NCBI GenBank assembly: GCA_963847605.1
Contig: CAWKAM010000009.1
Location: 12,028-76,027 of the forward strand
Length of the DNA stretch: 64,000 bases
Source: an uncultured delta proteobacterium
GTDB lineage: Bacteria; Desulfobacterota; Desulfomonilia; UBA1062
Reading direction: 5' to 3'
Within the stretch, counting starts at the first letter, position 1. Each line of letters starts with the position of its first letter. This document shows, piece after piece, positions 1-17,176 of this stretch. Below the pieces are notes generated by a model. That model worked only from the letters and a program-made list of their open reading frames with translations, searched no databases and was not told the DNA's origin. Made by a program: the position numbers and the translations under genes.

Positions 1-65
1 ATTAACGAAACGAACTACTAGTCATATTCCAGTAGAAAAACCCGGCCCCGGCCCGATTTCACACC

Positions 66-1196
66 TTACATATCAAACCACTGCTCCGCCGCTTTCCGGC
101 GCTCCCGGAATTTTGTGTACCTGTCGATCTGCTTTTTTGTGCTGTCGTTAACCGCAAAGGTAAACCCGCTGTATATTGACGGGCCGCCCTTTTTCGGCCA
201 GTTGTTGACATCGATAATGTCGGCTTTTAATACCCTTTTTAATGCATGGGTCATGTCTGCGGTGGTTGTCAGCGCCCAGTCGGGCCTGGCCTTTGAAAGG
301 GCGTCTATATATATGGAGCACTTGCCGAGAACCATGGCCTTCATGATATTGGCAGGATTAAAATAGGTCCTGTAGTTGGTTCGCATCATCACATAGTTAT
401 ACTCCTTCAAGGTGGTGTTCTCGTTGGGATTGGTTATGCAGCAGACCCCGCCGTCAGGGCGCAGGACCCTTGCGATCTCGGCGATATAAAACGGCCTTCT
501 GTGCCTGAAGTTAAGATAGGATGCGTCGGTCGTGTTGACAAGGTTCAATGAATCCGACGGAAAGGGGATTTGATTCATATCACGCGTAAAAAAGGTGATC
601 TCCGATCCCGTCTCTCGGTTTAATTTTTCTGCTTCTTCTATGTTGCCTTCCGATATATCCATGCCAAAGACCCTGTAGCCCTTTCCCCCCGCGTAAAGAG
701 AGCGCAATGTGTCTTCTATAACCCTTGCGAGCCTGCCGTACCCGGTGCCCACATCAAGGGCAGAATACTTACCGTCGGAAGATGGAAAATTTGAAAAAAG
801 GGCCAGTCTTGTCAGAACCTCTTGAAGCTGACGCGAGGGGTCACTGGTGATGACGCGGTAATAGCTTGGGTTTGTGGGAAAATCAACAAAGATAGGGGGG
901 CATATTTTTTCAAACGCCACCACCTTCTGCTGATAGCCCTCCGGATCTTCAAGGAGCTGTGCGAGCATCTCCTCAAGGTTTTCCGGGAAATACTTTTTGA
1001 ACTCTTCCCGCGCCAGCCGTGCCGCATCCTCGTCAATTTTGGGTTTTTTCCCAAGCACATCAAAATAAAATGTATAGAGTCCATCCACCAGAGCCTTCTG
1101 GATAAAGCTTAAGGGCTGGTTGAGCTCCCTGTGCAGGGATTCTTCCTTTTCTCTGGTTTGTTTCAGCAATTCTTTTGCCGATTCATCTTTTTTCAT
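66..1196 (-). CDS. Class I SAM-dependent methyltransferase
   Basis: 376 aa ORF. Gly-rich motif I 'LDVGTGYGRLA' is followed by the acidic motif 'VFGMDISE'. Confidence 0.7.
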   Translation of the reverse strand: MKKDESAKELLKQTREKEESLHRELNQPLSFIQKALVDGLYTFYFDVLGKKPKIDEDAARLAREEFKKYFPENLEEMLAQLLEDPEGYQQKVVAFEKICPPIFVDFPTNPSYYRVITSDPSRQLQEVLTRLALFSNFPSSDGKYSALDVGTGYGRLARVIEDTLRSLYAGGKGYRVFGMDISEGNIEEAEKLNRETGSEITFFTRDMNQIPFPSDSLNLVNTTDASYLNFRHRRPFYIAEIARVLRPDGGVCCITNPNENTTLKEYNYVMMRTNYRTYFNPANIMKAMVLGKCSIYIDALSKARPDWALTTTADMTHALKRVLKADIIDVNNWPKKGGPSIYSGFTFAVNDSTKKQIDRYTKFRERRKAAEQWFDM

Positions 1197-1399
1197 AGAT
1201 GTTTATTTATTCAAGTTTAATTGGACCATTACCATCGGATTATATTAAATAGCCCTTTCACAGGCCGATGTCAACCATCCTGAAACCTGTATTTTTTAAA
1301 AAAACTTACCCCGCAGCCGTCAAATTTTATCTGGACAAAGAAAAAGCTTAAAGGTATTAAGCTACAAGTCATTCGATTTATTCATAAAATATTTTTCAG

Positions 1400-2311
1400 A
1401 TGGGAGGCCAGATTATGCCCGGCAACCGGACGGAAGGAGTACGCGCTGTTCTCATAACAGGAACCTCAACCGGAATCGGCAAAGCCTGCGCACTTTACCT
1501 TGACAGCATAGGGTTTAACGTCTTTGCCGGGGTGCGCAGGGAGGCTGACGGCAACGCCTTGAGGAAAAACGCCTCCGGCAGACTCACCCCGGTTCACATA
1601 GACATCACCGATTCAGAATCCATCGATTCCGCCTTGAAGTTCGTATCCGGTGAGGTGGGCGGCGCCGGTCTGGCGGGGCTGGTTAACAATGCGGGCATTG
1701 TTACCGCGAGCGGCCTCCTGGAGTTTCTTTCCATCGCTGAAATCCGCAACCTGCTGGAGGTCAACCTCATCGGGAACATCGCCGTCACCCAGGCGTTTTT
1801 GCCCCTTATCCGGAAGGGGCATGGCCGCATCGTAAACATGGGTTCAATCGCCGGCATCATGCCCCAACCCTACCTGGCCCCGTATTCAGCCTCAAAAGCC
1901 GCTCTTGAAGCCATCACCGATTCGCTCAGACTGGAGCTTAAACCCTGGAAAATCCCGGTTTCAATCATCGAACCCGGAATCGTCTATACCCCCATGTGGG
2001 ACAAAGCTGAGACAGTAGCGGCAATCAAGGCAAAAAATTTCCCGCAGGAGGCCTTTGACCTCTATGGCCCCACCATCAACGAGGTCGTTGAAATCCTTAA
2101 AAATAAAAAAAGGATAAAAATGGTTGCGGTTTCCATTGATGTGGTTGCAAGGACGGTTGCCCGGGCGCTCACGGCAAAAAGGCCCGGGATACGTTACATC
2201 GTCGGCTGGGATGCCAGGTTGGCCGCTTTTCTTACCTGGGCGCTGCCCCACCGGGCGATAGATTGGCTCGCCATGCTGTTCTGGCGGCAGTTAGGATTAA
2301 AGCAAAGGTAG
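1400..2311 (+). CDS. Short-chain dehydrogenase/reductase (SDR) family oxidoreductase
   Basis: N-terminal 'VLITGTSTGIGKA' Rossmann motif. Catalytic 'YSASK' (YxxxK) and 'NNAG' motifs. Confidence 0.85.
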   Translation: MGGQIMPGNRTEGVRAVLITGTSTGIGKACALYLDSIGFNVFAGVRREADGNALRKNASGRLTPVHIDITDSESIDSALKFVSGEVGGAGLAGLVNNAGIVTASGLLEFLSIAEIRNLLEVNLIGNIAVTQAFLPLIRKGHGRIVNMGSIAGIMPQPYLAPYSASKAALEAITDSLRLELKPWKIPVSIIEPGIVYTPMWDKAETVAAIKAKNFPQEAFDLYGPTINEVVEILKNKKRIKMVAVSIDVVARTVARALTAKRPGIRYIVGWDARLAAFLTWALPHRAIDWLAMLFWRQLGLKQR

Positions 2312-2538
2312 CAGAAAGGAATAGGTATGAAACATTTCAGAGCCATTACAACAGTCGATTCTTACAGCAGCCCTTTTTTATTTGGCGTTTCCACAGACGT
2401 CTTATGCAGCTGCCGAGGAGGGGCACAGCATCACCCTGCTCCAATTGCTGATTCTCGGGTTTGTCCTGGGATTGTACCTCTACAACCACTTCAAGGGCAA
2501 AATCAAAGCCATGTTTACAAAAAAGCAATGACCGTTGA

Positions 2539-3052
2539 TCAGGGTATCGCCTCCCGGTAAAGGCTACGTACATACACGATATACTTCCACATGTAGTGAA
2601 GCATCACAACCGCAGTGAAAAGAAGCAGGATCCCGGCATATTGCCAGCCGATAATGTATGCCATGACCGTTGGATAAACCGCGGCAGCCAGCAGATTCGT
2701 CTCCAGATGCGGTATGTCCAGAATCCCGGCTTTCCGTGAGATAAGGATGATGATGGGGGTCCAGAAGGCTATTCCCGTCAGGGTGACGATCAGAAGCGGC
2801 CATGCCTTTGACACATAAACAACAACAAATATCGTCGTAAACCCGAAGAAAAAATCCGCCAGCGCATCAAAATTCGTGCCCGTACGTCACCTTCTTTTTG
2901 CTTCTTCTTGCAAAATAACCATCCAGGGTGTCGGTTATCGCCCCGGCGGCAAAAAGATAGTAGGCAACCACCCTTTCGTCATGTAATAGGAGCCATATAA
3001 TTACCGGGGTCATAATAATCCGCAAAGACGTCATGATATCCGCAATTCGCAT
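2539..3052 (-). CDS. CDP-alcohol phosphatidyltransferase family protein, interrupted by an apparent 1-nt frameshift at an A4 run (~2868-2872)
   Basis: ORF 2867..3052 carries 'DTLDGYFARR...TYGHEF'. The adjacent frame (continuous with ORF 2539..2814) continues 'FDALADFFFG'. Together these rebuild the D-G-x2-A-R ... G-x3-D-x3-D signature. Confidence 0.6.
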
Positions 3053-3103
3053 GGTTGATACACCTCTTAGTCGATCGTTTAATAGATAATTTTAAAGCAA
3101 ACC

Positions 3104-4282
3104 TTAATGGGCATTATTAAATCTAAAGTGATAAAAATAGACTGCGGCAACGAAAATGGCAACTATAACAGAAAGGATTGCCCAAAATATAAAGACATTG
3201 CCCCAGCCTCCCCCCTGTGATGTGACCAGAAGAGGAACAATCACACCGATCAGGACAGTGCCGATATAGCCCATGCCGTCTATAAACCCTGTAGACGCAG
3301 CCACCACCTGCTGATCAACGAAACGTGTCGGCATGGTTGTAACCAGAAAAACATGGGGTCCATACAAAAAGAAGCTGCCGACCAACAATACAAGTGTTGC
3401 CCAAAGGCCTTCTGTAAATGGGAGTATTGCGAAGCTCACCGCAAGGAAAATCAGGAAAATAATCGTCAGCACGTCCTTGCTGATTTTAAATCTGTTGTAC
3501 ACAAGGGTTCCTATCACGCCGGCAATAGGAATCAAAAACACCTTCAGGCCCACATCGCCCATATCTTTTACCATCAGATGCTGATGTTGAAAAAGATATA
3601 GAGGGATCCAGCTTATGACACCATATCTTACCATATTCAGTAGGCATAAAGATAACCCGCTGAAAACAATCGGCAAGGACAATGTGTTTTTGACCTGATT
3701 ATTTACTTTTTGAGGGGGTTCAATCTTCAGCTCCGGCTTTGTCAATAACAGCAATATTCCCCTTGCAAGCATGAAAGCCGAGGCCACAAAGAATCCTGCC
3801 CGCCATCCCCAGGCGCCCACAGCATACGCGGATACCAGCCACGCAACAGAATTGCCGACCTGATAGGATGTTCCTAATATTATCGATGTACGCTCTCTGT
3901 CTTCAGTACGCTGGGTAAGCGCATTTGCTCTCACGCAGGAGGACCAGCCCATGGACTGAAACAATCCCTCCACTATCTCCCCTGCAAATAATAGAGTAAA
4001 AAACCCGGCATAACAGCCGAGGAAAAAATTCATAAAAGCAGAGCAGATTAATCCTATGGAAATGTATACAAACGGATTATAGCGTTCTGAAACCTGACCG
4101 TGAAAAAACTGACCGAATGCATATGCAAAGAAAAAACCGCTGGTGACCAACCCAACGTTCATCATGCTCAAATCTTTATGCGTGGCCAATAACGCCGGCA
4201 CCACAATGCTCAGATTCACCTTGCCGAAATAGTACGTTGCATAAGATGACCAGATATTCCAGAATATAGGTTTGTTTTTCAT
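3104..4282 (-). CDS. MFS-type membrane transporter
   Basis: 392 aa, roughly 12 predicted hydrophobic helices and a Gly-rich MFS-like composition. Overlaps the upstream gene by 4 nt. Confidence 0.7.
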   Translation of the reverse strand: MKNKPIFWNIWSSYATYYFGKVNLSIVVPALLATHKDLSMMNVGLVTSGFFFAYAFGQFFHGQVSERYNPFVYISIGLICSAFMNFFLGCYAGFFTLLFAGEIVEGLFQSMGWSSCVRANALTQRTEDRERTSIILGTSYQVGNSVAWLVSAYAVGAWGWRAGFFVASAFMLARGILLLLTKPELKIEPPQKVNNQVKNTLSLPIVFSGLSLCLLNMVRYGVISWIPLYLFQHQHLMVKDMGDVGLKVFLIPIAGVIGTLVYNRFKISKDVLTIIFLIFLAVSFAILPFTEGLWATLVLLVGSFFLYGPHVFLVTTMPTRFVDQQVVAASTGFIDGMGYIGTVLIGVIVPLLVTSQGGGWGNVFIFWAILSVIVAIFVAAVYFYHFRFNNAH

Positions 4283-4710
4283 GTTTTTTTGTCTTTTGAT
4301 ATGCGTGATATTTCATTCTTGATGTTTGTTGAGGACTGGCCGGGAAAATAGGGAATTACAATAACTCTCCCGTTGATTTCTTCCAGAACCTTTCTTGCCT
4401 TTTCGATGTCCTGCTCATCGTGATTTGAACTTTCCATCAGTATATCCGGTCTAATCATCATCACATTCTGCAATGGCGAATAGGTTTCCTGGGCCACCAC
4501 CACATCCACATATTTTATCGCGGCCGCAAGCGCCATCCGGTCTTCAAAGGAAAGCAACGGCTTGGGCTTTTTCTCCATAACCGCCTCATCCGTCAGGATT
4601 CCCACAATCATTTTCCCGTCTTCTCCGGCGATCGCCTTTGCGTTTCTCATCATCATGAGATGACCTTTATGAACGATATCCAATACATAGTATGAATAAA
4701 CAATTTTCAT
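4279..4710 (-). CDS. Small cytidylyltransferase-fold (HxGH) nucleotidyltransferase, TagD/GCT-like
   Basis: 143 aa. 'YVLDIVHKGHL' HxGH motif near the N-terminus. Size matches glycerol-3-phosphate cytidylyltransferase-like enzymes. Confidence 0.65.
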   Translation of the reverse strand: MKIVYSYYVLDIVHKGHLMMMRNAKAIAGEDGKMIVGILTDEAVMEKKPKPLLSFEDRMALAAAIKYVDVVVAQETYSPLQNVMMIRPDILMESSNHDEQDIEKARKVLEEINGRVIVIPYFPGQSSTNIKNEISRISKDKKT

Positions 4711-4740
4711 TTTTATCTTTCCCTGATTGTCTGATTTCTG

Positions 4741-5169
4741 TTACGGTTTTTTAAAAGCACCCTTTGAAATAGCCATTGCAACAGACATCACCAGAATGCT
4801 GATCGCGATGCTCCATCCGGGTGAATGCACCCCTACCTCTATGGAAAAGGAGATAAATGTAATCGGAACAAGTGCCAAAAGCGACATCACTAGGATGATC
4901 CACCAGGCATACCTGTCCCCTCTGCTGAATTGAAACCTGATCATCATGACAAAACCGATACCCATGGATAACGCAAGGGCGCCCACCACCTTCATGGAGG
5001 CCACGCTGAGCGAAGCCATTTTCGGGTCCAACTCCTCAAACGTCTTGCCGAGAAACCTCTCATGATAAGGCATTATCCTTGGCCAAATTAAATATACCAG
5101 CCCGAACAGGATAATGTAAGCGGCAAACACATAAAGCATGATGGCCGCCACCTTCAATCTCTTTTCCAT
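4741..5169 (-). CDS. Hypothetical integral membrane protein
   Basis: 142 aa, about 4 hydrophobic segments. No recognisable catalytic motif. Confidence 0.45.
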   Translation of the reverse strand: MEKRLKVAAIMLYVFAAYIILFGLVYLIWPRIMPYHERFLGKTFEELDPKMASLSVASMKVVGALALSMGIGFVMMIRFQFSRGDRYAWWIILVMSLLALVPITFISFSIEVGVHSPGWSIAISILVMSVAMAISKGAFKKP

Positions 5170-5309
5170 AATTTATCCCATTGTTATTTTTGTTGCGTCA
5201 TTTTTGGCTGGACAGGAGGGTTTCAAAACCGCTGCCCGATTTTTTTCTTTTACATTATATCCAAAATGGCCCATGGGATCAATAGCCTTTGTTCTTTTAA
5301 ATCAAAATT

Positions 5310-5747
5310 TCAAGCATATTGCGCTTGACAACCATTTCTATAAAGCATGGCGAAGTGAAAAAGACGTATCGTTGGCGATCCTTGGGCGATCGTATACGAC
5401 TGGTAATGCACAAGAAAAGACATCAGCCAGGCGTCTACACGGAAGGTCTCAGCATCAGTCCTTTGTTGCAATCTGTCTAGACTTACAAGACCTGTTGGGA
5501 CTGGATTGCCGTCAACCTGGAGGTTGAATTTCCTTATGTCGAGATCCTCGCTCAAATAGGTATAATTCACTGCTAAGCCATAAGGGAGCGGCAGCTGGCT
5601 CCTTGTTTGCTCGGGGACAGATGACAGGTCAAGGGGCAATAACTGATTGTCTGCAGCGGTTGCAGTCCCGGAAAAAATGAATACAAAACTAATCACAAAG
5701 ATGAAATGGGAAAATCTTATCTTTCTTGGAAGAATAGCATTGAACAT
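5310..5747 (-). CDS. Hypothetical secreted protein
   Basis: Start trimmed to the internal Met. Hydrophobic signal-like N-terminus 'FIFVISFVFIFSGTATAADN'. AT-rich gene. Confidence 0.45.
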   Translation of the reverse strand: MFNAILPRKIRFSHFIFVISFVFIFSGTATAADNQLLPLDLSSVPEQTRSQLPLPYGLAVNYTYLSEDLDIRKFNLQVDGNPVPTGLVSLDRLQQRTDAETFRVDAWLMSFLVHYQSYTIAQGSPTIRLFHFAMLYRNGCQAQYA

Positions 5748-5894
5748 AGTGTGCCTCCTCTTTCTCAACAGATTTTATTAAACATTCATATTGCCAAGTA
5801 CTCTCTCGCGACCTGGTTTCCACAAGCAGAATGCCAACTCTGCTCTCAGAATAACGGCAAGGGATGATCCTCTAAAGGTGTCATGAACCTTGAA

Positions 5895-7793
5895 TTATTT
5901 ATTTCTAGCAACAACAAAATCAGCTACCCATCCGGGGATGAATGCCCAGGCACGATTATCTTTTGAGGTTCTTCCGAGATCCAGAGTCCCAACAAGCCAT
6001 ACTTTTGATTTGTAAGCAACACTGGCTCCATATGACTGCAGGCTATTGGCAAAAGATAGTATTCCAGGTTTTTTTATCATACCACATTCCCCTATGCTGT
6101 ACCCGGCACTATGTCCCTCGGAACCAGGCCACGCAGTAATATAGTGTGCAGCCAATGCCGGGGCCAGAGCCATGGTCCTGACAAACTCAGCTATTGTCTT
6201 ACATTTTAATCCATGCCTGAATGACAACCATGAAGCTATAATTCGGGGTAATGGTGTATATTCATCTTGAGGGTCCGGCACACCATGTATTGTTCTTAAG
6301 TATTCTTTTCCCCATCCATTTGTATCTCTGAAGAAATCATCTAATCTCCACATGGGCGAAGAAAAATCAACGGCATAAATCTTACTGCACTGCTTAAATA
6401 CTTCACGAGCCATGGCTTGTGCATATGTGGTCACATCATGATCAGATTGAATATCAAGGGCGCCTATTGTGTATGCAGTCATTCCCAGATAAATAGGTTG
6501 ATCGTGATAGTTTATGCCAAACTTGTTATGTATGCTTTTTAATTGATATTCGCTCAATGGCTTGGTTACATCACCTTTCATGAAAATGATTCTATCTTTG
6601 ATTCCTTGCAGTTCTGGTTTTTTGCCCATCACCTCAAATCTGTTCAGACCTGCTGCAAGCTGATCTTCCTCCAGGTCAATTACCACTGCTTTTACCTTGT
6701 TCAGTAATCTTGCTCGTAACTCATTATCCTCAAGAGAATAAATCATCTTCAACAATAACTCTGAAAGATTCCCTACTCCCCCGGCATAATCTAATACCAC
6801 TATGGATTTATTACGATCTCCTTGCATTATATCTGTAATGTCATCCAATATTCTCTTAACTAGTGCCTTCCTTCCAATCTGGTCTTGAGAAACGAATGTT
6901 GAGTCAAGAGTGACATGCTCTACAGGAACTTCTGCAACAGGGTATAACCCAAGAAACCTGCTGTTATCGTCAACAAGAAACCTGCCTACTCCGAGAATAG
7001 ACTTCCTATCTACGTTTTGATCTAATAAACAATCCAGGTTCTCTGCGATATAATGAGGAATCTGGCCAGTAATGCGCGCATGAAAAGCCGGATATAATTC
7101 CCTCAGTATTGCATATAAATCAATCCCGGCAGGCCAGATGGCACCAAAACATTGCCAGGCAACGTTTACTTCCACAGGAGTTCCCAACATCGTATGTATC
7201 TTATTGGATCTAAAAACGTTACCCACCCTTCTCAACAGATTTAAAATCTGAATTGTCTCCTGGATGAGTCGTTTCTGTTTATAGAACCCATTAACTTCCC
7301 TATTTTCCACATGTGATGTTATTGCTTTGAAAAATGGTGCCTTGCTGATTAATTTTGATTGTCTTATCAGCTGCCTACCTGTTAATTCCTGATGCGATAT
7401 TTCTTCAGGAACATACCCATTCTGAACTTTCATTTTGTTGATAGCTGAAATAGAGTCCGGTATGCATCCCTCTTTTTCATATTGTTTTATGGTTCTGCTG
7501 TAAGTCAATAGATCTTCCCATGCACTTTGATCATGAAACACCTGACGTGCTTCAACGGTATCTCTTTCCAACTTTAGCGGATACATGGTTGCAGGATCCA
7601 CAAGATCCTTGCTCGTGATAACATCATCTTTCATGGGATTCTTGATGTTGAAACTCACACCTTCTTCGATCTTCTTAAGGCTTCCAATGCTGTAAATCTT
7701 TCTGGGGGTAGTGGGGGGTACAGATACCGAGCTCTTGGTCTCCGATTCACCCCTGGTAGTCACAAAACTCAGATCTGTTTTTAGGTTTTTCAT
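5895..7793 (-). CDS. Hypothetical ~630 aa protein with a central class I SAM-methyltransferase-like core
   Basis: Start moved to Met16 because it is preceded by AGAGGAA. Motif I 'VVLDYAGGVGN', acidic motif 'AVVIDLEED' and motif 'IFMKGDV' lie in canonical order. 'GHSAG' sits near the C-terminus. No signal peptide. AT-rich. Confidence 0.5.
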   Translation of the reverse strand: MKNLKTDLSFVTTRGESETKSSVSVPPTTPRKIYSIGSLKKIEEGVSFNIKNPMKDDVITSKDLVDPATMYPLKLERDTVEARQVFHDQSAWEDLLTYSRTIKQYEKEGCIPDSISAINKMKVQNGYVPEEISHQELTGRQLIRQSKLISKAPFFKAITSHVENREVNGFYKQKRLIQETIQILNLLRRVGNVFRSNKIHTMLGTPVEVNVAWQCFGAIWPAGIDLYAILRELYPAFHARITGQIPHYIAENLDCLLDQNVDRKSILGVGRFLVDDNSRFLGLYPVAEVPVEHVTLDSTFVSQDQIGRKALVKRILDDITDIMQGDRNKSIVVLDYAGGVGNLSELLLKMIYSLEDNELRARLLNKVKAVVIDLEEDQLAAGLNRFEVMGKKPELQGIKDRIIFMKGDVTKPLSEYQLKSIHNKFGINYHDQPIYLGMTAYTIGALDIQSDHDVTTYAQAMAREVFKQCSKIYAVDFSSPMWRLDDFFRDTNGWGKEYLRTIHGVPDPQDEYTPLPRIIASWLSFRHGLKCKTIAEFVRTMALAPALAAHYITAWPGSEGHSAGYSIGECGMIKKPGILSFANSLQSYGASVAYKSKVWLVGTLDLGRTSKDNRAWAFIPGWVADFVVARNK

Positions 7794-8313
7794 TTGTGTT
7801 CCTCTTTCGTTGAAGCTGGATTGGGTACCAATGCACATTTGTCGAGGGTTTCAGATGATAACAGGATATGCATAGGTCAATTGTATCTTACAAAACATGT
7901 GCCAAATAATTGAGTTAGAGTTACCTAAATAACCTCGGGTTATTCACAGGCATAATCTAGTACTATTTAATAATAATCAGTATTACCGTTGTATTACATA
8001 TAGTTGAAAAAATTATAGGAAGAGAAACTTTTATGACTGTAGTAAATTAATCCTACCCCGAGAAGAAAAAGTTTTCCAATGATCGGTCCCTCTTATCACG
8101 CTGTTTGCCCATATTAGCGTATTGCAGACTTTTATCACTCTAAGCAATATTGGATATCTAATAATAATAAGTATAGCTTACGTGCCATAATTTCATTTCA
8201 AGATGTATTGATCTTGAGCGTAGATCTCTTTTTGAAACCTGTGATACATGAGTAATGAACCGGCTTTCAGCTCTTGCTTTCTTGTCATTTGAGAAACGAA
8301 AAGAGGAGGGACA

Positions 8314-8751
8314 ATGATGGAACAAGAAAGACTGCTTAAGACGGCATTTTTGGCGGGTGCGATAACCGATGCTCTGGCGGTGTTGCCGATGTTGGTTCCT
8401 GAACTTGCCCGTCTCCTTTGGGGATTCGACAATCAGTCCCATGCCTACCGGTTCGCCATGGGTTATGCTGCTTCTCTCATGCTGGGTTGGACAGGGCTTC
8501 TTATGTGGGCATACCGGCGTCCGATCGAAAGGCGCTTTGTCGCGGCTCTAACGGTCTTTGTCATTTACGGCCTTGCGTTGACCGAGGTCGTTGCCGTCCT
8601 TTCGGGCCGTCTCGCGGTATGGCGCATGGTTCCTACGTGGTGTCTTCAGGTGGCATTGCTCTGCCTCTTCGCAGGGGCTTATCACTATCATACTATTCGT
8701 GCATTCATGAGTATCCGCCCGGAGCGTTGCAGAAAAGACTACAACGTATAG
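8314..8751 (+). CDS. Hypothetical membrane protein
   Basis: 145 aa, 4 hydrophobic helices. Confidence 0.45.
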   Translation: MMEQERLLKTAFLAGAITDALAVLPMLVPELARLLWGFDNQSHAYRFAMGYAASLMLGWTGLLMWAYRRPIERRFVAALTVFVIYGLALTEVVAVLSGRLAVWRMVPTWCLQVALLCLFAGAYHYHTIRAFMSIRPERCRKDYNV

Positions 8752-8849
8752 CATCCGTGCCGTAATTGCCATATCCTTAGGGATGGGCATAATTATGCTA
8801 TGACTCATTGCCCGAGGCAAAACCGACATTATTATAGAGGTCGTATAAA

Positions 8850-9200
8850 ATGAAGAAGATACTCTTAGTAGACGATGATATACGCATCCAAAGGCTTATC
8901 AGGGAAGAGCTCGAAGAGGATGGGTATCATATATCGACCGCCTCCAATGGAAAGGAGGCACTTGCATGTATAAACAGGCCCGAAAAGCCCGATCTTATCA
9001 TCCTGGACCTCCGCATGCCCAGAATGAGCGGGCTTGATACCATGAAATTCATATCAAATCTCAAAGAAAAAGTCCCTGTGATCATTTTTACGGCATATGG
9101 CGCCTACAGGAATGATCCGTTGGCCAAGTCGGCGAATGCCTATGTTGTAAAGTCCTCCGACGTTTCGGAGTTGAAAAAGAAGGTCCATGATTTGCTATAG
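8850..9200 (+). CDS. Stand-alone response regulator receiver (CheY-like) protein
   Basis: 'KILLVDDD' region, phospho-acceptor context 'LIILDLRMP'. 116 aa with no output domain. Confidence 0.85.
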   Translation: MKKILLVDDDIRIQRLIREELEEDGYHISTASNGKEALACINRPEKPDLIILDLRMPRMSGLDTMKFISNLKEKVPVIIFTAYGAYRNDPLAKSANAYVVKSSDVSELKKKVHDLL

Positions 9201-9301
9201 CCTTGCCGTTATGTAAGTTTCTCCTGAGGAACGCATCTTTCCTCATACGATATCCCATTGATTATTGGCAGAAGACAACTAACATTGAAGTAAAAAGAGA
9301 C

Positions 9302-10288
9302 ATGAACATGACAGCGCCTGCGATCCACATCTGTGATCTGTCCAAAATCTATGTCGTGAACGAGCGTGAAGTCGGGGTGAAGGCCGCGCTCAAAAGCCTC
9401 GTGCACCGGCGCACGAGAGAAATACACGCCGTGGACGGCATCACGTTCGACCTTGCCCCCGGCGAGATCGTGGGGTTCTTAGGCCCCAACGGAGCAGGTA
9501 AGACGACCACGCTCAAGATGCTTTCGGGCCTGCTCCACCCCACTGCGGGCGAGGTCAGCGTGCTCGGCCATGTGCCGTGGAAGCGCGACAAAGAATATCT
9601 CCGCCGGATTACGCTCGTTATGGGGCAGCGTAACCAGTTGATCTGGGATATCCCGGCCCTGGATTCGTTCGAATTGAACCGGGCCGTCTACCGCATTCCG
9701 CTTGAGGACTATCGCCTCATGCTCGGCGAGCTGACCGAGCTCCTTGAGCTGGGGCCGCTTCTCCAGAAGCCTGTCCGTAACCTCTCTTTAGGTGAACGGA
9801 TGAAGTGCGAGATTGCATCCGCCCTCCTGCACCGGCCCCAGGTGGTTTTCCTCGACGAGCCCACCATAGGCCTTGATGTGACCATGCAGCGGCGCATCCG
9901 CACCTTTATTGCAGAGTACAACCGCCGCTTCGATGCGACCGTCCTGCTGACCAGCCACTACATGGCCGACGTCGAGGCGCTGTGCCGCCGCGTCGTCGTC
10001 ATCCACCACGGCAGGCTCCTCTTCGACGGCGACCTGTCGAATATGGTGCAGCAATTCACCGCCCATAAAACCATTGTGGTGCAATTGGGAAATTGCCAGA
10101 CAAACTTGAATTCCTACGGCGAGGTGGTCTCCTGTTCCGACGGCCTTGTTACGCTGCGCGTCCCGAAGGCTGAGACCGCCCATGTCACCGAGCGTCTGCT
10201 GGCCGATCTGCCGGTGATCGACCTGCTGGTAGAGGACCCGCCCATCGAGGAAGTAATCGAGCGGGTCTTTGCACAGGAGCCCATATGA
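9302..10288 (+). CDS. ABC transporter ATP-binding protein (ABC-2 exporter type)
   Basis: Walker A 'GPNGAGKTT', signature 'LSLGERMK', Walker B 'VVFLDEPT'. Start chosen at the internal Met. Confidence 0.85.
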   Translation: MNMTAPAIHICDLSKIYVVNEREVGVKAALKSLVHRRTREIHAVDGITFDLAPGEIVGFLGPNGAGKTTTLKMLSGLLHPTAGEVSVLGHVPWKRDKEYLRRITLVMGQRNQLIWDIPALDSFELNRAVYRIPLEDYRLMLGELTELLELGPLLQKPVRNLSLGERMKCEIASALLHRPQVVFLDEPTIGLDVTMQRRIRTFIAEYNRRFDATVLLTSHYMADVEALCRRVVVIHHGRLLFDGDLSNMVQQFTAHKTIVVQLGNCQTNLNSYGEVVSCSDGLVTLRVPKAETAHVTERLLADLPVIDLLVEDPPIEEVIERVFAQEPI

Positions 10289-11088
10289 AGGCGCTTAAGG
10301 AGCTCTATGTGCAGCAGTTTAAGACCACCTTCATCATGATGCTCCAGTACCGCGCCTCGCTCGTCATCTGGATGATGGGGCACGTCTTAGAGCCGCTCGT
10401 CTATCTCATAGTCTGGTCGGTCGTCTCGAATGGGGCGGGCGGCAGCGTCGGCGATTATACCGCACAGGGGTTCGCGGCCTATTTCATCGTGCTGATGCTG
10501 GTCAATCACCTCACCTACACCTGGATCATGTATGAATACGAATACCGCATCCGGGAAGGGGGGCTGTCGTTCGCCCTGCTGAGACCGGTGCATCCGATCC
10601 ACTCCGACATTGCCGACAATGTCTCGGCAAAGCTGGTCACCCTTCCCTTCATGCTGCTCATTGCGGCCGGGCTGGCAGCAATCTTCAAACCCGCCGCCAC
10701 TCCCGCTTTATGGGCCGTCGCAGCATTTGTCCCTGCGTTGCTGCTTGCCTTCATACTGCGGTTCCTCCTGGAGTGGACACTGGCGCTGGCCGCCTTCTGG
10801 ACCACGCGCACCGGCGCCATCAACCAGATCTATTTTGTCCTGGTGCTGTTCCTTTCCGGGCAGATCGCCCCGATTGCGCTTTTCCCCTATCCGATCCGGG
10901 TGGCGGCAACTGTCCTGCCCTTCCGATGGATGATCGGCTTTCCGGTGGAGCTCCTTCTCGGCCGTCTTACGTTAGGCGATGCACTGACAGGCCTTATGGC
11001 CCAGGCTGCATGGCTGGGTGTAAGCCTGGTACTGCTCCGGATCGTGTGGCGCGCGGGTGTGCGTGTCTACTCGGCGGTGGGCGCATGA
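10285..11088 (+). CDS. ABC-2 family transporter permease
   Basis: Polytopic 267 aa. ATGA overlap with the upstream ATPase gene. Confidence 0.75.
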   Translation: MKALKELYVQQFKTTFIMMLQYRASLVIWMMGHVLEPLVYLIVWSVVSNGAGGSVGDYTAQGFAAYFIVLMLVNHLTYTWIMYEYEYRIREGGLSFALLRPVHPIHSDIADNVSAKLVTLPFMLLIAAGLAAIFKPAATPALWAVAAFVPALLLAFILRFLLEWTLALAAFWTTRTGAINQIYFVLVLFLSGQIAPIALFPYPIRVAATVLPFRWMIGFPVELLLGRLTLGDALTGLMAQAAWLGVSLVLLRIVWRAGVRVYSAVGA

Positions 11089-11870
11089 GCTACCCTCGCC
11101 TCCTGGCTGTCTTTTTCAGGGTCAGCGTTATGGGCGAACTGGCCTACCGCATCAACTTTTTCGTGCAGCTGTTCCAGTCTGTCCTGGAATTGGCCACGGC
11201 AGTGGCCGGCCTGGCGGTGATCTTCTCACATACCAGCACCCTCGGTGGTTGGCGGCCCGACGAGGTGCTGGCACTGGTGGGGATTTACATCCTTGTCGGA
11301 GGTATAATCGGCTTTGTGATACAGCCGGGCATGGAGCAGCTCATTGCATCCGTCAGGAACGGGACGCTCGATTTCACGCTCACCAAGCCGGAAGACGCCC
11401 AACTCCTCGTCAGCATCCAGCAGGTGGAAATCTGGAAGCTGATTGATATCGTGTTGGGTTTCGCTGTTCTCGCAACAGCACTCGTGCGGCTGGGGGAGAA
11501 AATGGGGATGCAGCAGGCTGCGGAATTCACCGTGATGCTGCTCGCAGGCACGGTCATCATCTACAGCTTCTGGCTGCTCCTGGCCACGCTCTCATTCTGG
11601 TTTGTAAGGGTGGAGAATATCCTTATGATCTTCCAGAGCATGTACGAGGCAGGACGCTGGCCGGTGAGCCTGTATCCGGGGTGGCTGCGCTTCGCGCTTA
11701 CCTTCATCGTGCCGGTCGCCTTTGCCACGACAGTGCCCGCCGAGGCCTTGACCGGCCGTATGAACGAGGTCACCCTGGCAGGCGCGATAGTCATGGCTTT
11801 AGTCCTGTCAGTGATCTCACGGGTTTTCTGGCACCTGGGATTGCGCCATTATACTGGGACTTCGGCATAA
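11085..11870 (+). CDS. ABC-2 family transporter permease (second subunit)
   Basis: Start 'MSYPRLLAVFF' overlaps the previous stop (ATGA). The listed ORF 10710.. is an out-of-frame N-terminal extension. Confidence 0.75.
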   Translation: MSYPRLLAVFFRVSVMGELAYRINFFVQLFQSVLELATAVAGLAVIFSHTSTLGGWRPDEVLALVGIYILVGGIIGFVIQPGMEQLIASVRNGTLDFTLTKPEDAQLLVSIQQVEIWKLIDIVLGFAVLATALVRLGEKMGMQQAAEFTVMLLAGTVIIYSFWLLLATLSFWFVRVENILMIFQSMYEAGRWPVSLYPGWLRFALTFIVPVAFATTVPAEALTGRMNEVTLAGAIVMALVLSVISRVFWHLGLRHYTGTSA

Positions 11871-11997
11871 TGAAAGGGTCCCTGACAGCTCTGAAAAAAA
11901 TTTAAGGATAGGGAAAAACTTGCAAGTGATGGAAAAAAGTCATACGTGAAGGGAGAGTCGCTTCGATATCAGGAAACGGGTCAAGGGAGAGATACAC

Positions 11998-12915
11998 ATG
12001 AGTGTACTGGATGCCATAGGGAATACGCCTCTTGTGGAGATAAAAAATATCTGGGATTCCGCCAAGACGGGCGTGCGGATCATGGCCAAGCTGGAAGGCT
12101 CCAATCCGGGCGGCTCGGTCAAAGACCGGCCCGCACTCTTCATGCTGAGGGAGGCCGTGGAGTCGGGAAAGTTGACCCCGGGCAAGGTGATCCTGGAGCC
12201 CACATCAGGCAACACCGGCATAGGTATGGCCATGGTGGCCGCAGCCATGGGATTCAAGATCAAGCTGACCATGCCCACCTGCGTGAGTACCGAGCGCAGG
12301 GCGGTTCTCCAGGCACTCGGGGCCGAACTCGAGCTGACCCCGGGCTGCGACAAAACGGACGGTGCCATCAATCGGGCCCACCATATCATGGAATGCGACG
12401 GCAACCATTTCTTCATGCCAAACCAGTTCGATAACCCTCACAACTATCTGGCTCATTATAAAACCACCGGGCCCGAGATCTTTGAGCAAACAAAGGGCGA
12501 GGTCGATTGCTTTGTGGCAGGCATGGGCACTACCGGCACCCTCATGGGGTGCTCCATGTTCCTCAAGGAAAAGAGGCCTTCCATAAAGATCATCGGCGTC
12601 GAACCGACGCTGAACCATCGCATCCAGGGATTGAAAAATATGAATGAGGCCATTGTCCCCAAGATCTATGACCCGGCTCGGCTTGATGATAAAATTATCT
12701 GTTCCGACGAGGATGCCTTCGAGACTACCCGCGACCTCTCCATCCACGAAGGCCTGTTCTGCGGGGTCAGCTCGGGTGCGGCCATGTGGGGTGCGCTTCA
12801 GGTCGCACGCAACCTTAAACGCGGATCCACCGTTGTGGTCATCTTCCCGGACCGGGGCGACCGCTACCTTTCAACCGAGGTCTTCCGTTCCTTCTGCGCC
12901 CAGTGCCCGCCGTGA
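11998..12915 (+). CDS. cysK: Cysteine synthase (CysK/CysM family, PLP-dependent)
   Basis: PLP-lysine motif 'GGSVKDRPA', 'TSGNTGIG' and the 'G-T-G-G-T' loop. 305 aa. Confidence 0.85.
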   Translation: MSVLDAIGNTPLVEIKNIWDSAKTGVRIMAKLEGSNPGGSVKDRPALFMLREAVESGKLTPGKVILEPTSGNTGIGMAMVAAAMGFKIKLTMPTCVSTERRAVLQALGAELELTPGCDKTDGAINRAHHIMECDGNHFFMPNQFDNPHNYLAHYKTTGPEIFEQTKGEVDCFVAGMGTTGTLMGCSMFLKEKRPSIKIIGVEPTLNHRIQGLKNMNEAIVPKIYDPARLDDKIICSDEDAFETTRDLSIHEGLFCGVSSGAAMWGALQVARNLKRGSTVVVIFPDRGDRYLSTEVFRSFCAQCPP

Positions 12916-12945
12916 TGTGCAGGTTTCTCCCATGAGGGGTGTCAT

Positions 12946-13944
12946 TTGATGGAATATGCTCTCTTGGCCCAATCCGTCATTTCCGGCGAAATACTATCCC
13001 GCAAACAGGCCCTGGCCGTCCTGGCCGCTTCCGACGAGGATTCTCTTGGCCTGTTCGATGCGGCCTGGAGGGTACGCCGCCATTTTCATGGCAATCGCGT
13101 GCAGGTTCAGGTGCTGAGCAATGCCAAGAGCGGAATCTGCACGGAAGACTGCCACTACTGCTCACAGTCCTTAATCTCCAAGGCCGAGATCGCCCGCTAT
13201 CCGCTCAAGACCCGTGATGTACTGCTCGCCGAGGCCAGGGAAGCCCGGCGTCTCAAGGCCCACCGTTTCTGCATGGGCTTGAGCGGCCGCACGCTCAATG
13301 ATACCGAGGTGGATGCACTGTGTGGGGTAATCCGGGAAATTAAGGCCGGTACGGGCATCTCCGTCTGCTGCTCACTGGGGTTCCTGTCGCCGGAGCAGGC
13401 ACGACGACTGCAAGATGCCGGACTGGACCGTGTCAACCACAATATCAACACCAGCGAACGCCACTATCCCTCGATCTGCACGACCCATACCTGGTCCGAC
13501 CGCATGCATAACCTGAAGGTCTGCCGGGCAGCAGGGCTCGAGATATGCTCGGGCGGCATCATCGGCCAGGGCGAAACGGATGAAGACATCGTCGACATGT
13601 TGCTGGCGTTGAGGCAGATAAACCCCGAGTCGATCCCCATCAATTTTCTCATCCCTGTTCCCGGCACACCTTTCCAGATGTTGGACCCATGCCTGACGCC
13701 GCTGCGCTGCCTGCGGGTTCTTGCCTTGGCGCGCCTCCTTCATCCCGCAGCCGATATCAGGATGGCCGGCGGCCGAGAGGTACATCTCCGCAGCCTCCAA
13801 CCAATGGCGCTGTTCCTGGTCAATTCAATCTTCGTCAACGGTTATCTGACCGAAGGGGGACAGCCCCGGGACGAGGCCTTGAGAATGATAGAGGATCTGG
13901 GTTTCGAGCTTGAAGTGGAAGGCGCTGCAAGCTTCAGGGAGTAA
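12946..13944 (+). CDS. bioB: Biotin synthase
   Basis: Radical SAM 'CTEDCHYCSQS' (CxxxCxxC). BioB-like length. First gene of the bio operon. Confidence 0.9.
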   Translation: MMEYALLAQSVISGEILSRKQALAVLAASDEDSLGLFDAAWRVRRHFHGNRVQVQVLSNAKSGICTEDCHYCSQSLISKAEIARYPLKTRDVLLAEAREARRLKAHRFCMGLSGRTLNDTEVDALCGVIREIKAGTGISVCCSLGFLSPEQARRLQDAGLDRVNHNINTSERHYPSICTTHTWSDRMHNLKVCRAAGLEICSGGIIGQGETDEDIVDMLLALRQINPESIPINFLIPVPGTPFQMLDPCLTPLRCLRVLALARLLHPAADIRMAGGREVHLRSLQPMALFLVNSIFVNGYLTEGGQPRDEALRMIEDLGFELEVEGAASFRE

Positions 13945-13949
13945 TCATT

Positions 13950-15113
13950 ATGGATTTTCTGCAACGTGAACTCGAACAACTTGAACGCGCGGCACTGCGC
14001 CGCTGCACTGAGGCGTGGCCACAGTCCGGAGGGAGAATCGAGCTCACAGACGGCAGGACACTGCTCAACTTTTCCTCCAACGATTACCTTGGACTCGCCC
14101 GAGACCCGCATGTCAAGCGCCGGGCCATAGAGGTGATCGAACGTTGGGGTTGCGGGGCCACAGCCTCGCGCCTGATGTGCGGCACGCTTGAGTTACACGA
14201 GGAACTGGAAGCCGCTTTGGCCCGCCTTGTCGGGGGGGAAAAAGCGCTGGTTTTCAGCAGCGGTTTCGGCATGAATGTCGGTGTGGTGGCGGCGCTGGCA
14301 GGCCGCGACGACATCATTTTCTCAGACCGGCTGGTGCATGCCAGCCTGATCGATGGCGCCCGCCTGAGCCGAGCCACCATCAAACCCTTTTCACACAACG
14401 ACGTCGCCGGCTTGGCACACCTGATGGAGACTACACCCTGCCGGGGACGCCGGCTCATCGTGACCGAATCGGTATTCAGCATGGACGGCGATCTGGCACC
14501 CCTTGAGGAAATCCGAACCCTGGCGGCTCAATACCGGGCCGTCATGCTGGTGGATGAGGCGCATGCCGTAGGGGTCTGGGGAAAGGGCGGGGGCGTTTGC
14601 CGCCAACTGGGCAAGGGTATCCTGCCGGACTTCACAGCCGGTACGCTCGGCAAGGCTCTGGGCAGTATGGGCGGCTTTGTCGTCTGCTCGGAGATAAGCC
14701 GCGAGTTCCTGATCAATCGCGCACGCAGTTTCATTTTTGCAACGGCCCTGTCACCTGCCTGCCTGGGGGCCGCACTAGGGGCGATAGAGCGGATCAGTCA
14801 GGATCCTGATATGGGCGAGCGGCTGCTGGATCGTGCAAGGACCTTCCATGGCCTGTTGAAGGCCGAGGGGCTGAGACTCCCGGATTTCCGCTCCCAGATT
14901 CTTCCCGTGCCCGTCGGCGAGAATGAAGCTGCGCTGGAATTGGCGCAGCGCCTGCGCGGGCAAGGTCTGCTGGTAACCGCAATACGCCCCCCGACCGTAC
15001 CCCGCGGCACGGCACGCCTGCGCCTTTCAGTCACACTCTCTCATGAGATGCATGATCTCCAGTGGGCAGCAGCACAGATCGGCCGGGTGTCTAAGGGAAT
15101 GGGCCTGGTTTGA
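13950..15113 (+). CDS. bioF: 8-amino-7-oxononanoate synthase
   Basis: Class II aminotransferase-like AONS motifs 'DEAHAVG' and 'TLGKALGSMGG' (PLP Lys). Lies between bioB and bioD. Confidence 0.85.
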   Translation: MDFLQRELEQLERAALRRCTEAWPQSGGRIELTDGRTLLNFSSNDYLGLARDPHVKRRAIEVIERWGCGATASRLMCGTLELHEELEAALARLVGGEKALVFSSGFGMNVGVVAALAGRDDIIFSDRLVHASLIDGARLSRATIKPFSHNDVAGLAHLMETTPCRGRRLIVTESVFSMDGDLAPLEEIRTLAAQYRAVMLVDEAHAVGVWGKGGGVCRQLGKGILPDFTAGTLGKALGSMGGFVVCSEISREFLINRARSFIFATALSPACLGAALGAIERISQDPDMGERLLDRARTFHGLLKAEGLRLPDFRSQILPVPVGENEAALELAQRLRGQGLLVTAIRPPTVPRGTARLRLSVTLSHEMHDLQWAAAQIGRVSKGMGLV

Positions 15114-15133
15114 AAGGGGTGGAAGAAAACCGC

Positions 15134-15847
15134 ATGATCCCCGGGATCTTCGTCACCGGCACGGGCACCGATGTAGGCAAAACCATAACCGTTGCCGGTC
15201 TCATGCGCCGCCTTCTACGGCACGGTGTGGACGCCATGGTCATGAAGCCCGTGCAGACCGGTGCTTACCTCGATGCAACAGGGCATGCAACAGCCCCGGA
15301 TATCGACTTCGTACTTCAGGCAACCGGATTGCCCATGGATGATAAGACCATGCACCACCTTGCACCCTACCTCTATGAACCGGCCTGTTCGCCTCATCTG
15401 GCTGCCCGCCTGGCCGGTAGGCCGATCCGCCTGGAGGTCATCCTGGAGAGCGCCCGGGTGTTGGCAGGGTGTCACCGATTGCTGGTGGTCGAGGGCGCAG
15501 GAGGCCTTATGGTTCCGCTGAACGAATCCGAAACCATGCTGGATCTTGCCTCTGCGATGTCGATGCCGTTGCTGCTGGTGGGCCACTCGGGTCTGGGCAC
15601 GATCAATCACGTACTGCTTTCTCTCGAAGCCCTTCGCAGCCGCAATCTTAAGATCCTCGGGGTCATTCTCAATGATACCCGCCCCGTTGCGGAGCACAAC
15701 AGGTTTATTTACGACGACAACCTGCACGCCATCGAATCGTTCGGGAACATCCGGGTCCTGGCCCGTATCCCCTGGCTGGGAACCCCGCCCGACCCGGACC
15801 TGTTGGACCGGGCCCTGGGTGCGTGGGATCTTTATAAGGAGCTCTGA
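15134..15847 (+). CDS. bioD: Dethiobiotin synthetase
   Basis: P-loop 'GTGTDVGKT'. ATG start chosen downstream of the TTG-initiated listed ORF. Confidence 0.85.
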   Translation: MIPGIFVTGTGTDVGKTITVAGLMRRLLRHGVDAMVMKPVQTGAYLDATGHATAPDIDFVLQATGLPMDDKTMHHLAPYLYEPACSPHLAARLAGRPIRLEVILESARVLAGCHRLLVVEGAGGLMVPLNESETMLDLASAMSMPLLLVGHSGLGTINHVLLSLEALRSRNLKILGVILNDTRPVAEHNRFIYDDNLHAIESFGNIRVLARIPWLGTPPDPDLLDRALGAWDLYKEL

Positions 15848-15850
15848 ATC

Positions 15851-17176
15851 ATGCATTACCATGATATGCGCCGCCGGTCCGTCCAAGCCATATGGCATCC
15901 CTATACCGAGATCACTTCCTTCGAGCGGACCGAGTTTCCCATCATCGACAGGGCCGAAGGCTGCACACTCTACGAAATGAACGGCCGCGCATTGCTCGAC
16001 GGCATATCCTCATGGTGGTGCGTGAACCTGGGGCACAGCCACCCGAGGTTGGTACGGGCCATACAGGAACAGGCCGCACGCCTGCAGCACACGCTTCTGG
16101 GAGGCATGTCGCATCCCCTGGCCATCGAGCTGGCTGAGCGCCTCTCCCTTGTCGTCCCTTTCGGCCTGGGCCATGCCATGTTCGCAGCCGACGGTTCCAT
16201 GGCCGTAGAGGCAGCGCTCAAGATCGCCCTGCAGTACTGGACCAACCGTGGGGAGGCAGGCCGTACACGCTTCATCGCCCTGAAGGATGGATACCATGGC
16301 GACAGCCTGGGCGGTATCGGCGTGGGCTACATCGATACCTTCCATAAACCGTTCGGCCCTGCCGCCACGCCGTCGTGGCGGGCGATCTCGCCTCACTGCG
16401 CCCGTTGCCCCTTAAGCCTTCGACCCGGACGATGCGGCATCGAGTGCTTTGACTCGATGGCCGAGCTGGTTCATGAACATCACTCCGGGTGTGCTGCCGT
16501 GATCGTCGAGCCGCTCTGCCAGGCTGCTGCAGGGATGCGCATCTACCCTGCAGAATACCTGCGCCGCCTGCGCGAGCTTTGCGACGAGCACGGCCTCCTC
16601 CTCATCGCCGACGAGGTAGCAGTAGGTTTCGGTCGCACCGGGGCCATGTTCGCCTGTGAGAAGGCAGGCATCAAACCCGATATAATTACCCTGGGCAAGG
16701 GGCTGACCGGAGGTATGCTGCCCATGAGCGCTACGATGGTCACCGATGAGATATACGACACTTTCCGCGCCGACGGCGAGCTGACGCGAACCTTTCATCA
16801 CGGCACCACGTTCTGCGGTAACCCGATCACCAGTGCCGTTGCCCTGGCCGCGCTTAAGGTCTATGAAGAGGAACAGGTCATTGAGCGTCTGGCCGGCCCT
16901 GCAAGTATCCTTGAGGACGGCATGGGCCGTCTCGCAGTCCTGCTTGAAGATTCTCCCATGCAAGCGCTCGGGATGATTGCGGCCGTCGAGATCAAGGATT
17001 CGGCAGGTGGGACCTCCCGCGCCCGTGAAATAGTACGCCGGGCTTACGAGCTCGGCCTCTTCATCCGCCCCCTGGGGCCCACGATTTACCTATGGCCCCC
17101 GCTCAACATAGGCGAGTCGGATCTACGGAACATGATCGATATCCTGTTGGATGCGGCCCGAGCGCATCATGGATGA
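15851..17176 (+). CDS. bioA: Adenosylmethionine-8-amino-7-oxononanoate aminotransferase
   Basis: Class III aminotransferase, 441 aa, with 'TLGKGLTGG' PLP-lysine region. Confidence 0.9.
   Translation: MHYHDMRRRSVQAIWHPYTEITSFERTEFPIIDRAEGCTLYEMNGRALLDGISSWWCVNLGHSHPRLVRAIQEQAARLQHTLLGGMSHPLAIELAERLSLVVPFGLGHAMFAADGSMAVEAALKIALQYWTNRGEAGRTRFIALKDGYHGDSLGGIGVGYIDTFHKPFGPAATPSWRAISPHCARCPLSLRPGRCGIECFDSMAELVHEHHSGCAAVIVEPLCQAAAGMRIYPAEYLRRLRELCDEHGLLLIADEVAVGFGRTGAMFACEKAGIKPDIITLGKGLTGGMLPMSATMVTDEIYDTFRADGELTRTFHHGTTFCGNPITSAVALAALKVYEEEQVIERLAGPASILEDGMGRLAVLLEDSPMQALGMIAAVEIKDSAGGTSRAREIVRRAYELGLFIRPLGPTIYLWPPLNIGESDLRNMIDILLDAARAHHG

Follow-up and report, generated by a model that had tools for sequence, protein, structure and literature searches.

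An undescribed family of predicted class I methyltransferases from anaerobic bacteria, with a putative link to acyl-thioester reductases

The locus and its orphan methyltransferase gene

The analyzed stretch of contig CAWKAM010000009.1 from an uncultured delta proteobacterium, hereafter the window (64,000 nucleotides (nt)), carries near its left end a large gene on the reverse strand that a first-pass annotation, made from the letters alone, had described as encoding an orphan protein with S-adenosylmethionine (SAM)-dependent methyltransferase motifs. From the most upstream ATG, the open reading frame (ORF) spans 5895-7838 and encodes 647 amino acids (aa). The likely start is the second ATG, at 7793, which is preceded by a ribosome-binding site, AAAGAGGA, 7 nt upstream, gives a product of 632 aa and is equivalent to the site where most database copies begin. 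Residue numbers below refer to the 647-aa frame, as in the alignment. The features of the locus are collected in Table 1.

Table 1. Features of the methyltransferase locus and of the genes to its left (window positions)
Feature	Position	Strand	Basis or remark
Orphan SAM-dependent methyltransferase gene, 632 aa	5895..7793	-	ORF list, ribosome-binding site AAAGAGGA, 74 homologues, AlphaFold2 model
N-terminal 61 aa, remnant of the PF25653 HMG-CoA_red_N domain	7611..7793	-	Pfam, identity to P0078
All-alpha, family-specific N-terminal domain, aa 78-300	6939..7607	-	invariant Q160, Y242, Y249, H253, P261
Class I Rossmann-type SAM-methyltransferase core, aa 301-647	5898..6938	-	predicted fold
Motif I, D350-Y-A-G-G-V-G-N357, glycine-rich SAM loop	6768..6791	-	alignment of 30 sequences; aligns to KsgA motif I
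Motif II, D388, end of beta2	6675-6677	-	alignment of 30 sequences
Motif III, D423, after beta3	6570-6572	-	alignment of 30 sequences
GHSAG, G575-H576-S-A-G579	6102..6116	-	conserved family loop
Left synteny breakpoint	5874..5894		blastn; L001 ends 21 nt past the stop codon, L007 at the stop codon itself
Divergent intergenic region, 520 bp from ATG 7793, 35% GC	7794..8313		GC, blastn to L001 and L007
145-aa ORF with N-terminal signal peptide	5310..5747	-	GAGGAGG ribosome-binding site; homology to relatives ends at nt 5403
TagD-like cytidylyltransferase, 143 aa	4279-4710	-	overlaps the start of the transporter gene by 4 nt
GlpT/PgtP-like transporter of the major facilitator superfamily (MFS), 392 aa	3104-4282	-	
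CDP-alcohol phosphatidyltransferase, split over two reading frames	2539-3052	-	
Second, conventional class I methyltransferase, 376 aa, long N-terminal extension	66-1196	-	Methyltransf_25/11

The protein is, judging from its predicted structure, a class I SAM-dependent methyltransferase with intact cofactor motifs. Structure prediction, proposed at first pass, yielded a confident AlphaFold2 model from 30 homologues (mean predicted local distance difference test score (pLDDT) of 85.6, core above 90) that displays the seven-stranded beta-sheet and C-terminal beta6/beta7 hairpin of class I methyltransferases, and Foldseek agrees on this fold. The top structural neighbours are small-molecule methyltransferases, the best being UbiE/Coq5/MenG. 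Motifs I, II and III occur in the canonical order, as originally noted, and are conserved across the homologues: D350, G353, G354, G356, N357 and D423 are invariant in all 30, down to 27% identity, and D388 is kept in at least 90% of them. The absence of any hydrophobic segment (maximum Kyte-Doolittle score of 1.23) indicates a soluble protein, in keeping with the cytoplasmic location assigned earlier, and the fold together with the SAM-contact residues predicts that it is catalytically competent.

The core is preceded by a family-specific helical domain of ~220 aa that has no known fold relative and is presumed to act as a substrate-binding or lid domain. Residues 1-76 are modelled with pLDDT below 50, and aa 16-76 are predicted to be disordered. 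The C-terminal region, initially reported as unrecognized, consists of the beta6-beta7 hairpin (aa 606-645) and an insertion of ~100 aa between this hairpin and beta5 (aa 486-492). The GHSAG motif, which had been likened to a nucleophile elbow, is present within this insertion and belongs to a conserved loop in which G575, H576, G579 and Y580 are invariant, but its role as an alpha/beta-hydrolase elbow was ruled out because the serine is not conserved, position 577 being mostly Asn among homologues; the segment is coil in the model rather than strand-turn-helix, and no hydrolase fold was found among the structural matches.

The family is rare and undescribed, occurs mainly in anaerobic Thermodesulfobacteriota and is matched by no curated library. 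Its hosts include Smithellaceae (Smithella), Desulfomonilia and Desulfobacterales, as well as metagenome-assembled genomes labelled Planctomycetaceae, Leptospirales and Ca. Anammoxibacter. The homologue search returned 74 full-family relatives, none with an informative name, and a profile search across all 1.84 billion cluster representatives yielded only 51 proteins with E<=1e-3. No Pfam, NCBIfam or PADLOC family could be assigned to the protein itself, and PDB sequence searches with the single protein, the full-family profile and the core-only profile gave nothing significant (best match, KsgA motif I, E 0.25), so that its description as an orphan holds. Since no curated methyltransferase hidden Markov model (HMM) matches the protein, its membership in the class I superfamily rests on fold and motifs. 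Pfam Methyltransf_25/31/UbiE matches do occur in remote members, those that the family profile recovers from the 1.84-billion library at E 1e-6 to 1e-9; the genomic contexts of three of these remote relatives (P0099, P0103 and P0082) were uninformative.

A gene module in changing contexts

The locus was originally portrayed as an AT-rich islet between high-GC flanks, and this is accurate on one side: GC content is 40.5% in 5170-8310 and 58.5% in the right flank (8314-20000), but the left flank reaches just 47.4% (1-5169) or 44.4% (2750-5894), and the window as a whole, with a mean of 49.5%, is uneven, with 2-kb windows between 36 and 62%. The compositional anomaly is genuine: no long ORF in the window has a lower GC content at third codon positions (GC3) than the methyltransferase gene, whose value of 0.38 is the joint minimum, against 0.57-0.75 in the genes to its right.

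Comparison with close relatives shows the gene in varying surroundings. The L001 sequence (96% nt identity) matches the window solely from 5874 rightwards, with the break 21 nt past the methyltransferase stop codon, and L007 (92% nt identity) matches 5895-8129 alone, both flanks being unrelated. The gene and ~335 nt of upstream sequence, a module of ~2.25 kb, accordingly occupy three different contexts among relatives that are 92-97% identical; the upstream part that travels with the gene runs from 7794 to 8129 (L007) or to 8186 (L001). The GC content of the gene is ~7-12 points below that of its surroundings in four cases, the window, L001, L007 and L008 (~12 points in the first three), whereas in most other lineages it matches the host. 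Because of the module limits, the shifting contexts and the GC gap, there is good support for the view that a 2.25-kb module of gene and promoter was acquired horizontally or relocated, and the horizontal origin suggested by the first-pass annotation is plausible.

The evidence for transfer consists solely of the compositional anomaly and the variable context. We found no integrase, transposase, tRNA attachment site or flanking repeats in 1-9000, no Rfam element at the module borders and, in a repeat search, no terminal repeats bounding the module; homologues of the methyltransferase were likewise absent from 50,697 phage and 72,556 plasmid records.

The AT-rich region upstream of the gene, put at ~470 bp at first pass, measures 475 bp (34% GC) from the upstream ATG at 7838 to the divergent gene at 8314. 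It contains a 20-nt AT-rich direct repeat, TATTTAATAATAATCAGTAT, at 7964-7983 and 8155-8174, with copies that are 90% identical and 191 nt apart; the distal copy falls between the points where similarity to L007 (8129) and to L001 (8186) ends. The repeat could be an operator or a chance occurrence in AT-rich DNA. A sigma-70 scan detected 10 sites compared with 8.9 ± 3.2 in shuffled sequence, that is, no excess, and no Rfam family was detected in 5000-8600. A sigma-54-like element, TGGCAC-N5-TTGT, 67 nt upstream was dropped from consideration, being present solely in the window and the near-identical L001.

To the left of the methyltransferase lies the small secreted protein of the first-pass annotation. 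Its signal peptide and ribosome-binding site are evident, but this copy is altered at its C terminus and adjoins the methyltransferase in only one other contig (L042). Only two homologues were found in 5.8 billion clusters, and both of them align only as far as about aa 113 (nt 5403), beyond which the relatives share the onward sequence and the window has an unrelated 30-aa tail. Because its homology to the two relatives ends at this point, the ORF is a C-terminally replaced or truncated copy, and nt 5403 is a second rearrangement point. In L042, a short contig, the 3' end of the methyltransferase gene is followed by the small ORF, with 91.8% nt identity over window positions 6020-5403; L041 has the small ORF without the methyltransferase. 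Neither the Phenol_MetA_deg outer-membrane protein encoded at the Smithellaceae loci nor the ORF that follows the gene in L001 is similar to the small ORF.

Farther left on the same strand, on the other side of this breakpoint at nt 5403, are genes for a 142-aa membrane protein, the TagD-like cytidylyltransferase, the GlpT-like transporter and the split CDP-alcohol phosphatidyltransferase, none of which is linked to the methyltransferase in any relative. The association of a cytidylyltransferase with a GlpT/PgtP-like transporter is unusual and points to an organophosphate head group being imported and CDP-activated. In the split gene, a 61-aa ORF (2867-3052) covers positions 1-60 of 152 of the Pfam model, and a 91-aa hydrophobic ORF (2539-2814) without a Pfam match may be the displaced C-terminal part; the split is due to a frameshift, pseudogenization or misassembly. 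The second methyltransferase of the window has a weak PADLOC mad2 match (7e-11), and a fragment 79% identical to it sits upstream of the orphan methyltransferase in a Smithella-type locus (L010).

Further features were noted elsewhere in the window. At the right edge of the module, a 197-bp segment (8187-8383) is replaced relative to L001, a third small rearrangement that alters the first 20 aa of the divergently encoded 145-aa membrane protein (8314-8751). A 5.1-kb block (12917-18076) with bioB, bioF, bioD and bioA (Radical_SAM+BATS, Aminotran_1_2, AAA_26 and Aminotran_3) is missing from the 96% identical L001, where the flanking sequences are only ~10 nt apart. The segment 40711-43300 begins with tRNA-Phe (40711-40786); beyond it, GC content falls to 36%, the window's minimum, in a tract that contains small ORFs only; some of these have hydrophobic N-termini suggestive of secreted or lipoprotein products, and no long ORF of integrase size was seen.

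Recurrent neighbours of the methyltransferase family

To characterize the genomic context of the family, we gathered 88 loci from genomes and metagenomes, screened by tblastn. Downstream neighbours were counted in the 54 non-redundant loci with at least 700 nt of downstream sequence, and a fatty acyl-CoA reductase (FAR) was scored when it started within 400 nt on the same strand. By this measure, a FAR (Pfam NAD_binding_4 + Sterile) directly follows the methyltransferase in 33 of the 54 loci. These pairs span four bins of methyltransferase identity, including a Planctomycetaceae-type lineage (L022, L071, L072 and L077), and one is found even in the most distant clade, at 35% identity (L087, with a FAR at 36% identity). 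Additional neighbours with lipid- or acyl-related functions are an acyl-CoA synthetase and an enoyl-CoA hydratase (L070), a lipid A acyltransferase (L009) and FadL/Toluene_X porins (L003-L006); alpha/beta-hydrolases also occur, and in Smithellaceae, PAS-LuxR-type regulators and FadL adjoin the methyltransferase-FAR pair. An AdoMet decarboxylase downstream of the methyltransferase in L021 raised the idea of an aminopropyltransferase, which we rejected, the arrangement being confined to this single locus and motif I being judged unlike that of spermidine synthases.

A second reductase is connected to the family in two ways. First, in L026 the methyltransferase start lies 10 nt beyond the end of a gene for an HMG-CoA reductase (HMGR), a layout repeated in L075 (both from one Desulfohalobiaceae lineage). 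Second, methyltransferases and HMGRs of the clade to which the window copy belongs share the PF25653 domain, which is common to the sister methyltransferases P0009, P0011 and L045, where it is complete (115 aa, 8.6e-21), and to the reductases P0075-P0078. In the window copy, the match to the domain is limited to aa 46-75, which align with positions 3-32 of the 115 in the model and score 23.3 bits, short of the cut-off (27). Starting at Met1, this methyltransferase nonetheless shows homology to the N-terminus of the class I HMGR of the same organism, P0078 (50.8% identity over 61 aa), which is presumably encoded on the same contig. The window lineage has lost ~106 aa of PF25653, and what remains is a remnant after deletion. 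The relationship is also visible in the nucleotide sequence, with 80% identity over 71 nt between window positions 7630-7700 and the HMGR 5' coding region of L036 (10094-10164), a segment encoding KKIYSIGSLK..GVSFNIKNPMK. Three further proteins break near this shared segment, P0144 and P0145, which are truncated, and P0146, which is fused to an MreB-like fragment; these breaks may reflect recombination or assembly chimeras.

In L036-L038 (positions about 10001-12712), the HMGR with its PF25653 N-domain is followed, in an apparent operon, by a stand-alone gene of the DUF2156/LPG_synthase_C type, whose product resembles aminoacyl-tRNA transferases. This HMGR is of the archaeal-type class I (best PDB match 6hr7, 1.7e-87), and the lack of any other mevalonate-pathway gene near it in the loci examined (L036-L038) suggests a non-canonical role. 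The adjacent DUF2156 protein is 46% identical (4e-114) to one encoded ~3 kb after the methyltransferase-FAR pair in two Smithellaceae genomes (L003 and L018). Enzymes of the DUF2156 type attach amino acids to lipid alcohols, sterols among them (PMC7334510, PMC8913301). Our literature searches on FAR and methyltransferase in Smithella, HMGR and DUF2156, HMGR in Syntrophales, an ether-lipid gene cluster and methyltransferases of branched glycerol dialkyl glycerol tetraethers (brGDGTs) found nothing relevant.

Proposed function and alternatives

With moderate confidence, we propose that the protein is a lipid-type small-molecule methyltransferase coupled to a thioester reductase and that it is present in this genome as a horizontally acquired single-gene module. 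A lipid-type substrate appears most likely because a fatty acyl-CoA reductase recurs beside the methyltransferase in other anaerobic bacteria. SAM would bind to the Rossmann core, and the helical domain and the ~100-aa insertion would form a substrate pocket, probably rich in invariant Tyr, His, Arg and Asp residues (Y242, Y249, H253, R323, Y456, D491, Y513, H518, H576 and Y580). As substrate we envisage a small, hydrophobic compound that originates from an acyl thioester. Together with an NAD(P)H-dependent reductase that converts acyl-CoA to alcohol, a four-electron reduction of the thioester, the methyltransferase may constitute a two-step module, with FAR as the partner in most lineages and HMGR in some. 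Either order of the steps is conceivable: the enzyme could methylate the substrate of the reductase, by C- or O-methylation of the acyl-CoA, or the alcohol product or a derivative of it. In this genome, the AT-rich module of ~2.25 kb has no adjacent reductase gene and retains the ~60-aa remnant of the N-domain.

The protein can be compared with several characterized groups of enzymes. The UbiE/Coq5/MenG quinone C-methyltransferases (PF01209), which act on a lipid substrate, resemble it most: remote family members give sub-threshold UbiE/MenG matches, and, by eye, the motif pattern resembles that of E. coli UbiE (VLDxAGGxG, xxDxxxxxL and a beta5 'xxDFSxP'-like motif followed by a lid insertion). 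In contrast to UbiE, the window protein has no match to the PF01209 HMM, is ~2.7 times longer, includes the novel 220-aa helical domain and a longer insertion, and lacks a quinone-biosynthesis context. C-methyltransferase domains of polyketide synthases (PKS) and natural-product methyltransferases with helical lids (CurJ, DszA/DisA, AprA MT, PsoF and Fur6) differ in that the window protein stands alone, with no PKS or acyl carrier protein neighbours; its N-terminal domain does not match their lids, and the catalytic His-Glu dyad could not be mapped. PhcB of Ralstonia, which makes 3-hydroxy fatty acid methyl-ester signals in a SAM-dependent reaction, offers a possible parallel as another large methyltransferase that stands alone and acts on a fatty-acyl derivative, and the regulators and FadL beside the methyltransferase-FAR pair in Smithellaceae may extend it. 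The likeness is one of general description, and no NCBIfam match pointed to PhcB.

Several observations weigh against the proposed coupling. Of the 54 loci, 21 lack a FAR directly downstream, among them those of all close relatives of the window copy, and the window itself contains no FAR, HMGR or DUF2156 gene. Most methyltransferase-FAR pairs belong to one family, Smithellaceae, so that independent observations number closer to 4 than to 33; for HMGR, adjacency is seen in a single lineage and domain sharing in a single clade. The pocket residues were assigned by conservation alone.

Among the alternatives, the protein could be an N-methyltransferase in an aminoacyl-lipid pathway, in which FAR or HMGR would supply a lipid alcohol, a DUF2156 enzyme would add an amino acid ester and the methyltransferase would methylate the amine. 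The orthologous DUF2156 genes right after HMGR (L036-L038) and downstream of two methyltransferase-FAR pairs, and the reported activity of such enzymes on lipid alcohols, speak for this possibility. However, the genome scan found DUF2156 within reach of only these two pairs, both from one lineage, and the gene is absent from the window, so that we consider this alternative unlikely.

A head-group N-methyltransferase of a Kennedy-type CDP-alcohol pathway, comparable to phosphoethanolamine N-methyltransferase or PmtA and acting with the genes downstream, has a somewhat lower probability still and would be a rather surprising outcome. It draws on the arrangement in the window, where cytidylyltransferase, GlpT-like transporter and CDP-alcohol phosphatidyltransferase genes all follow on the same strand in the same lower-GC tract. 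This arrangement is unique to the window and is undermined by the synteny breaks, which fall at 5874 in L001 and at 5403 in L042 and L041, with both sides differing in L007; moreover, a truncated gene remnant stands between the methyltransferase and the head-group genes, and the CDP-alcohol transferase is itself split. Matches to N-methyltransferases score no better than those to C- or O-methyltransferases, and the phospholipid and phospho-base N-methyltransferases PmtA, PfPMT and AtPMT2 give no sequence-level match and differ from the protein also in that adjacency to head-group genes is not conserved among its relatives.

The first-pass annotation had suggested a function such as a toxin, defence or modification enzyme; we now regard an enzyme of this kind, located on a genomic island and acting on DNA or RNA or as an effector, as very improbable. 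Such a role would fit the foreign, AT-rich composition of the gene and its differing locations in close relatives, as well as the mad2 match of the second methyltransferase. Yet the orphan protein has no PADLOC match and no homologue in the phage and plasmid records, and no restriction, toxin or integrase partner, tRNA or flanking repeat lies nearby. The alignment contains no DPPY/NPPY-type or cytosine-C5 motif, and the structural neighbours are small-molecule methyltransferases. Nor do the contexts resemble defence islands: in the window, the methyltransferase has genes for an ABC transporter, a response regulator and lipid head-group functions around it, and the recurrent neighbour of the homologues is the acyl-CoA reductase. 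That the protein is a catalytically inert, methyltransferase-fold binding or regulatory module like the GRAS proteins can be dismissed with similar assurance, given that all canonical SAM-contact positions are invariant or nearly so down to 27% identity and that GRAS matches rank below ~30 true methyltransferases.

Returning to the thioester-reductase-coupled methyltransferase, one may speculate further that it belongs to an undescribed two- or three-enzyme lipid-tailoring pathway of anaerobes. FAR or a recruited archaeal-type HMGR would provide a lipid alcohol, the methyltransferase would methylate this alcohol or its DUF2156-made aminoacyl ester, and the products would be new methylated or cationic membrane lipids or lipid signals, with the shared PF25653 domain co-localizing or co-regulating methyltransferase and HMGR. 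Taken as a whole, this scenario is doubtful.

The immediate consequence is one of annotation: an unnamed family of 'hypothetical proteins' becomes a defined methyltransferase family with a novel accessory domain, and the tentative defence or toxin label is removed for the window. Nothing about the enzyme is mechanistically surprising yet, but the methyltransferase and FAR genes offer specialists in bacterial lipid biosynthesis a concrete gene pair, and domain sharing ties the methyltransferase to an HMGR whose neighbours in the loci examined include no mevalonate-pathway genes. Anaerobic habitats yield unusual methylated and ether lipids that serve as biomarkers, and to our knowledge the genes for their biosynthesis are largely unknown. 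If the coupling to the reductase is functional, the family would mark an uncharacterized modification of lipids or fatty alcohols among the syntrophs and sulfate reducers that live in peat, sediments and digesters.

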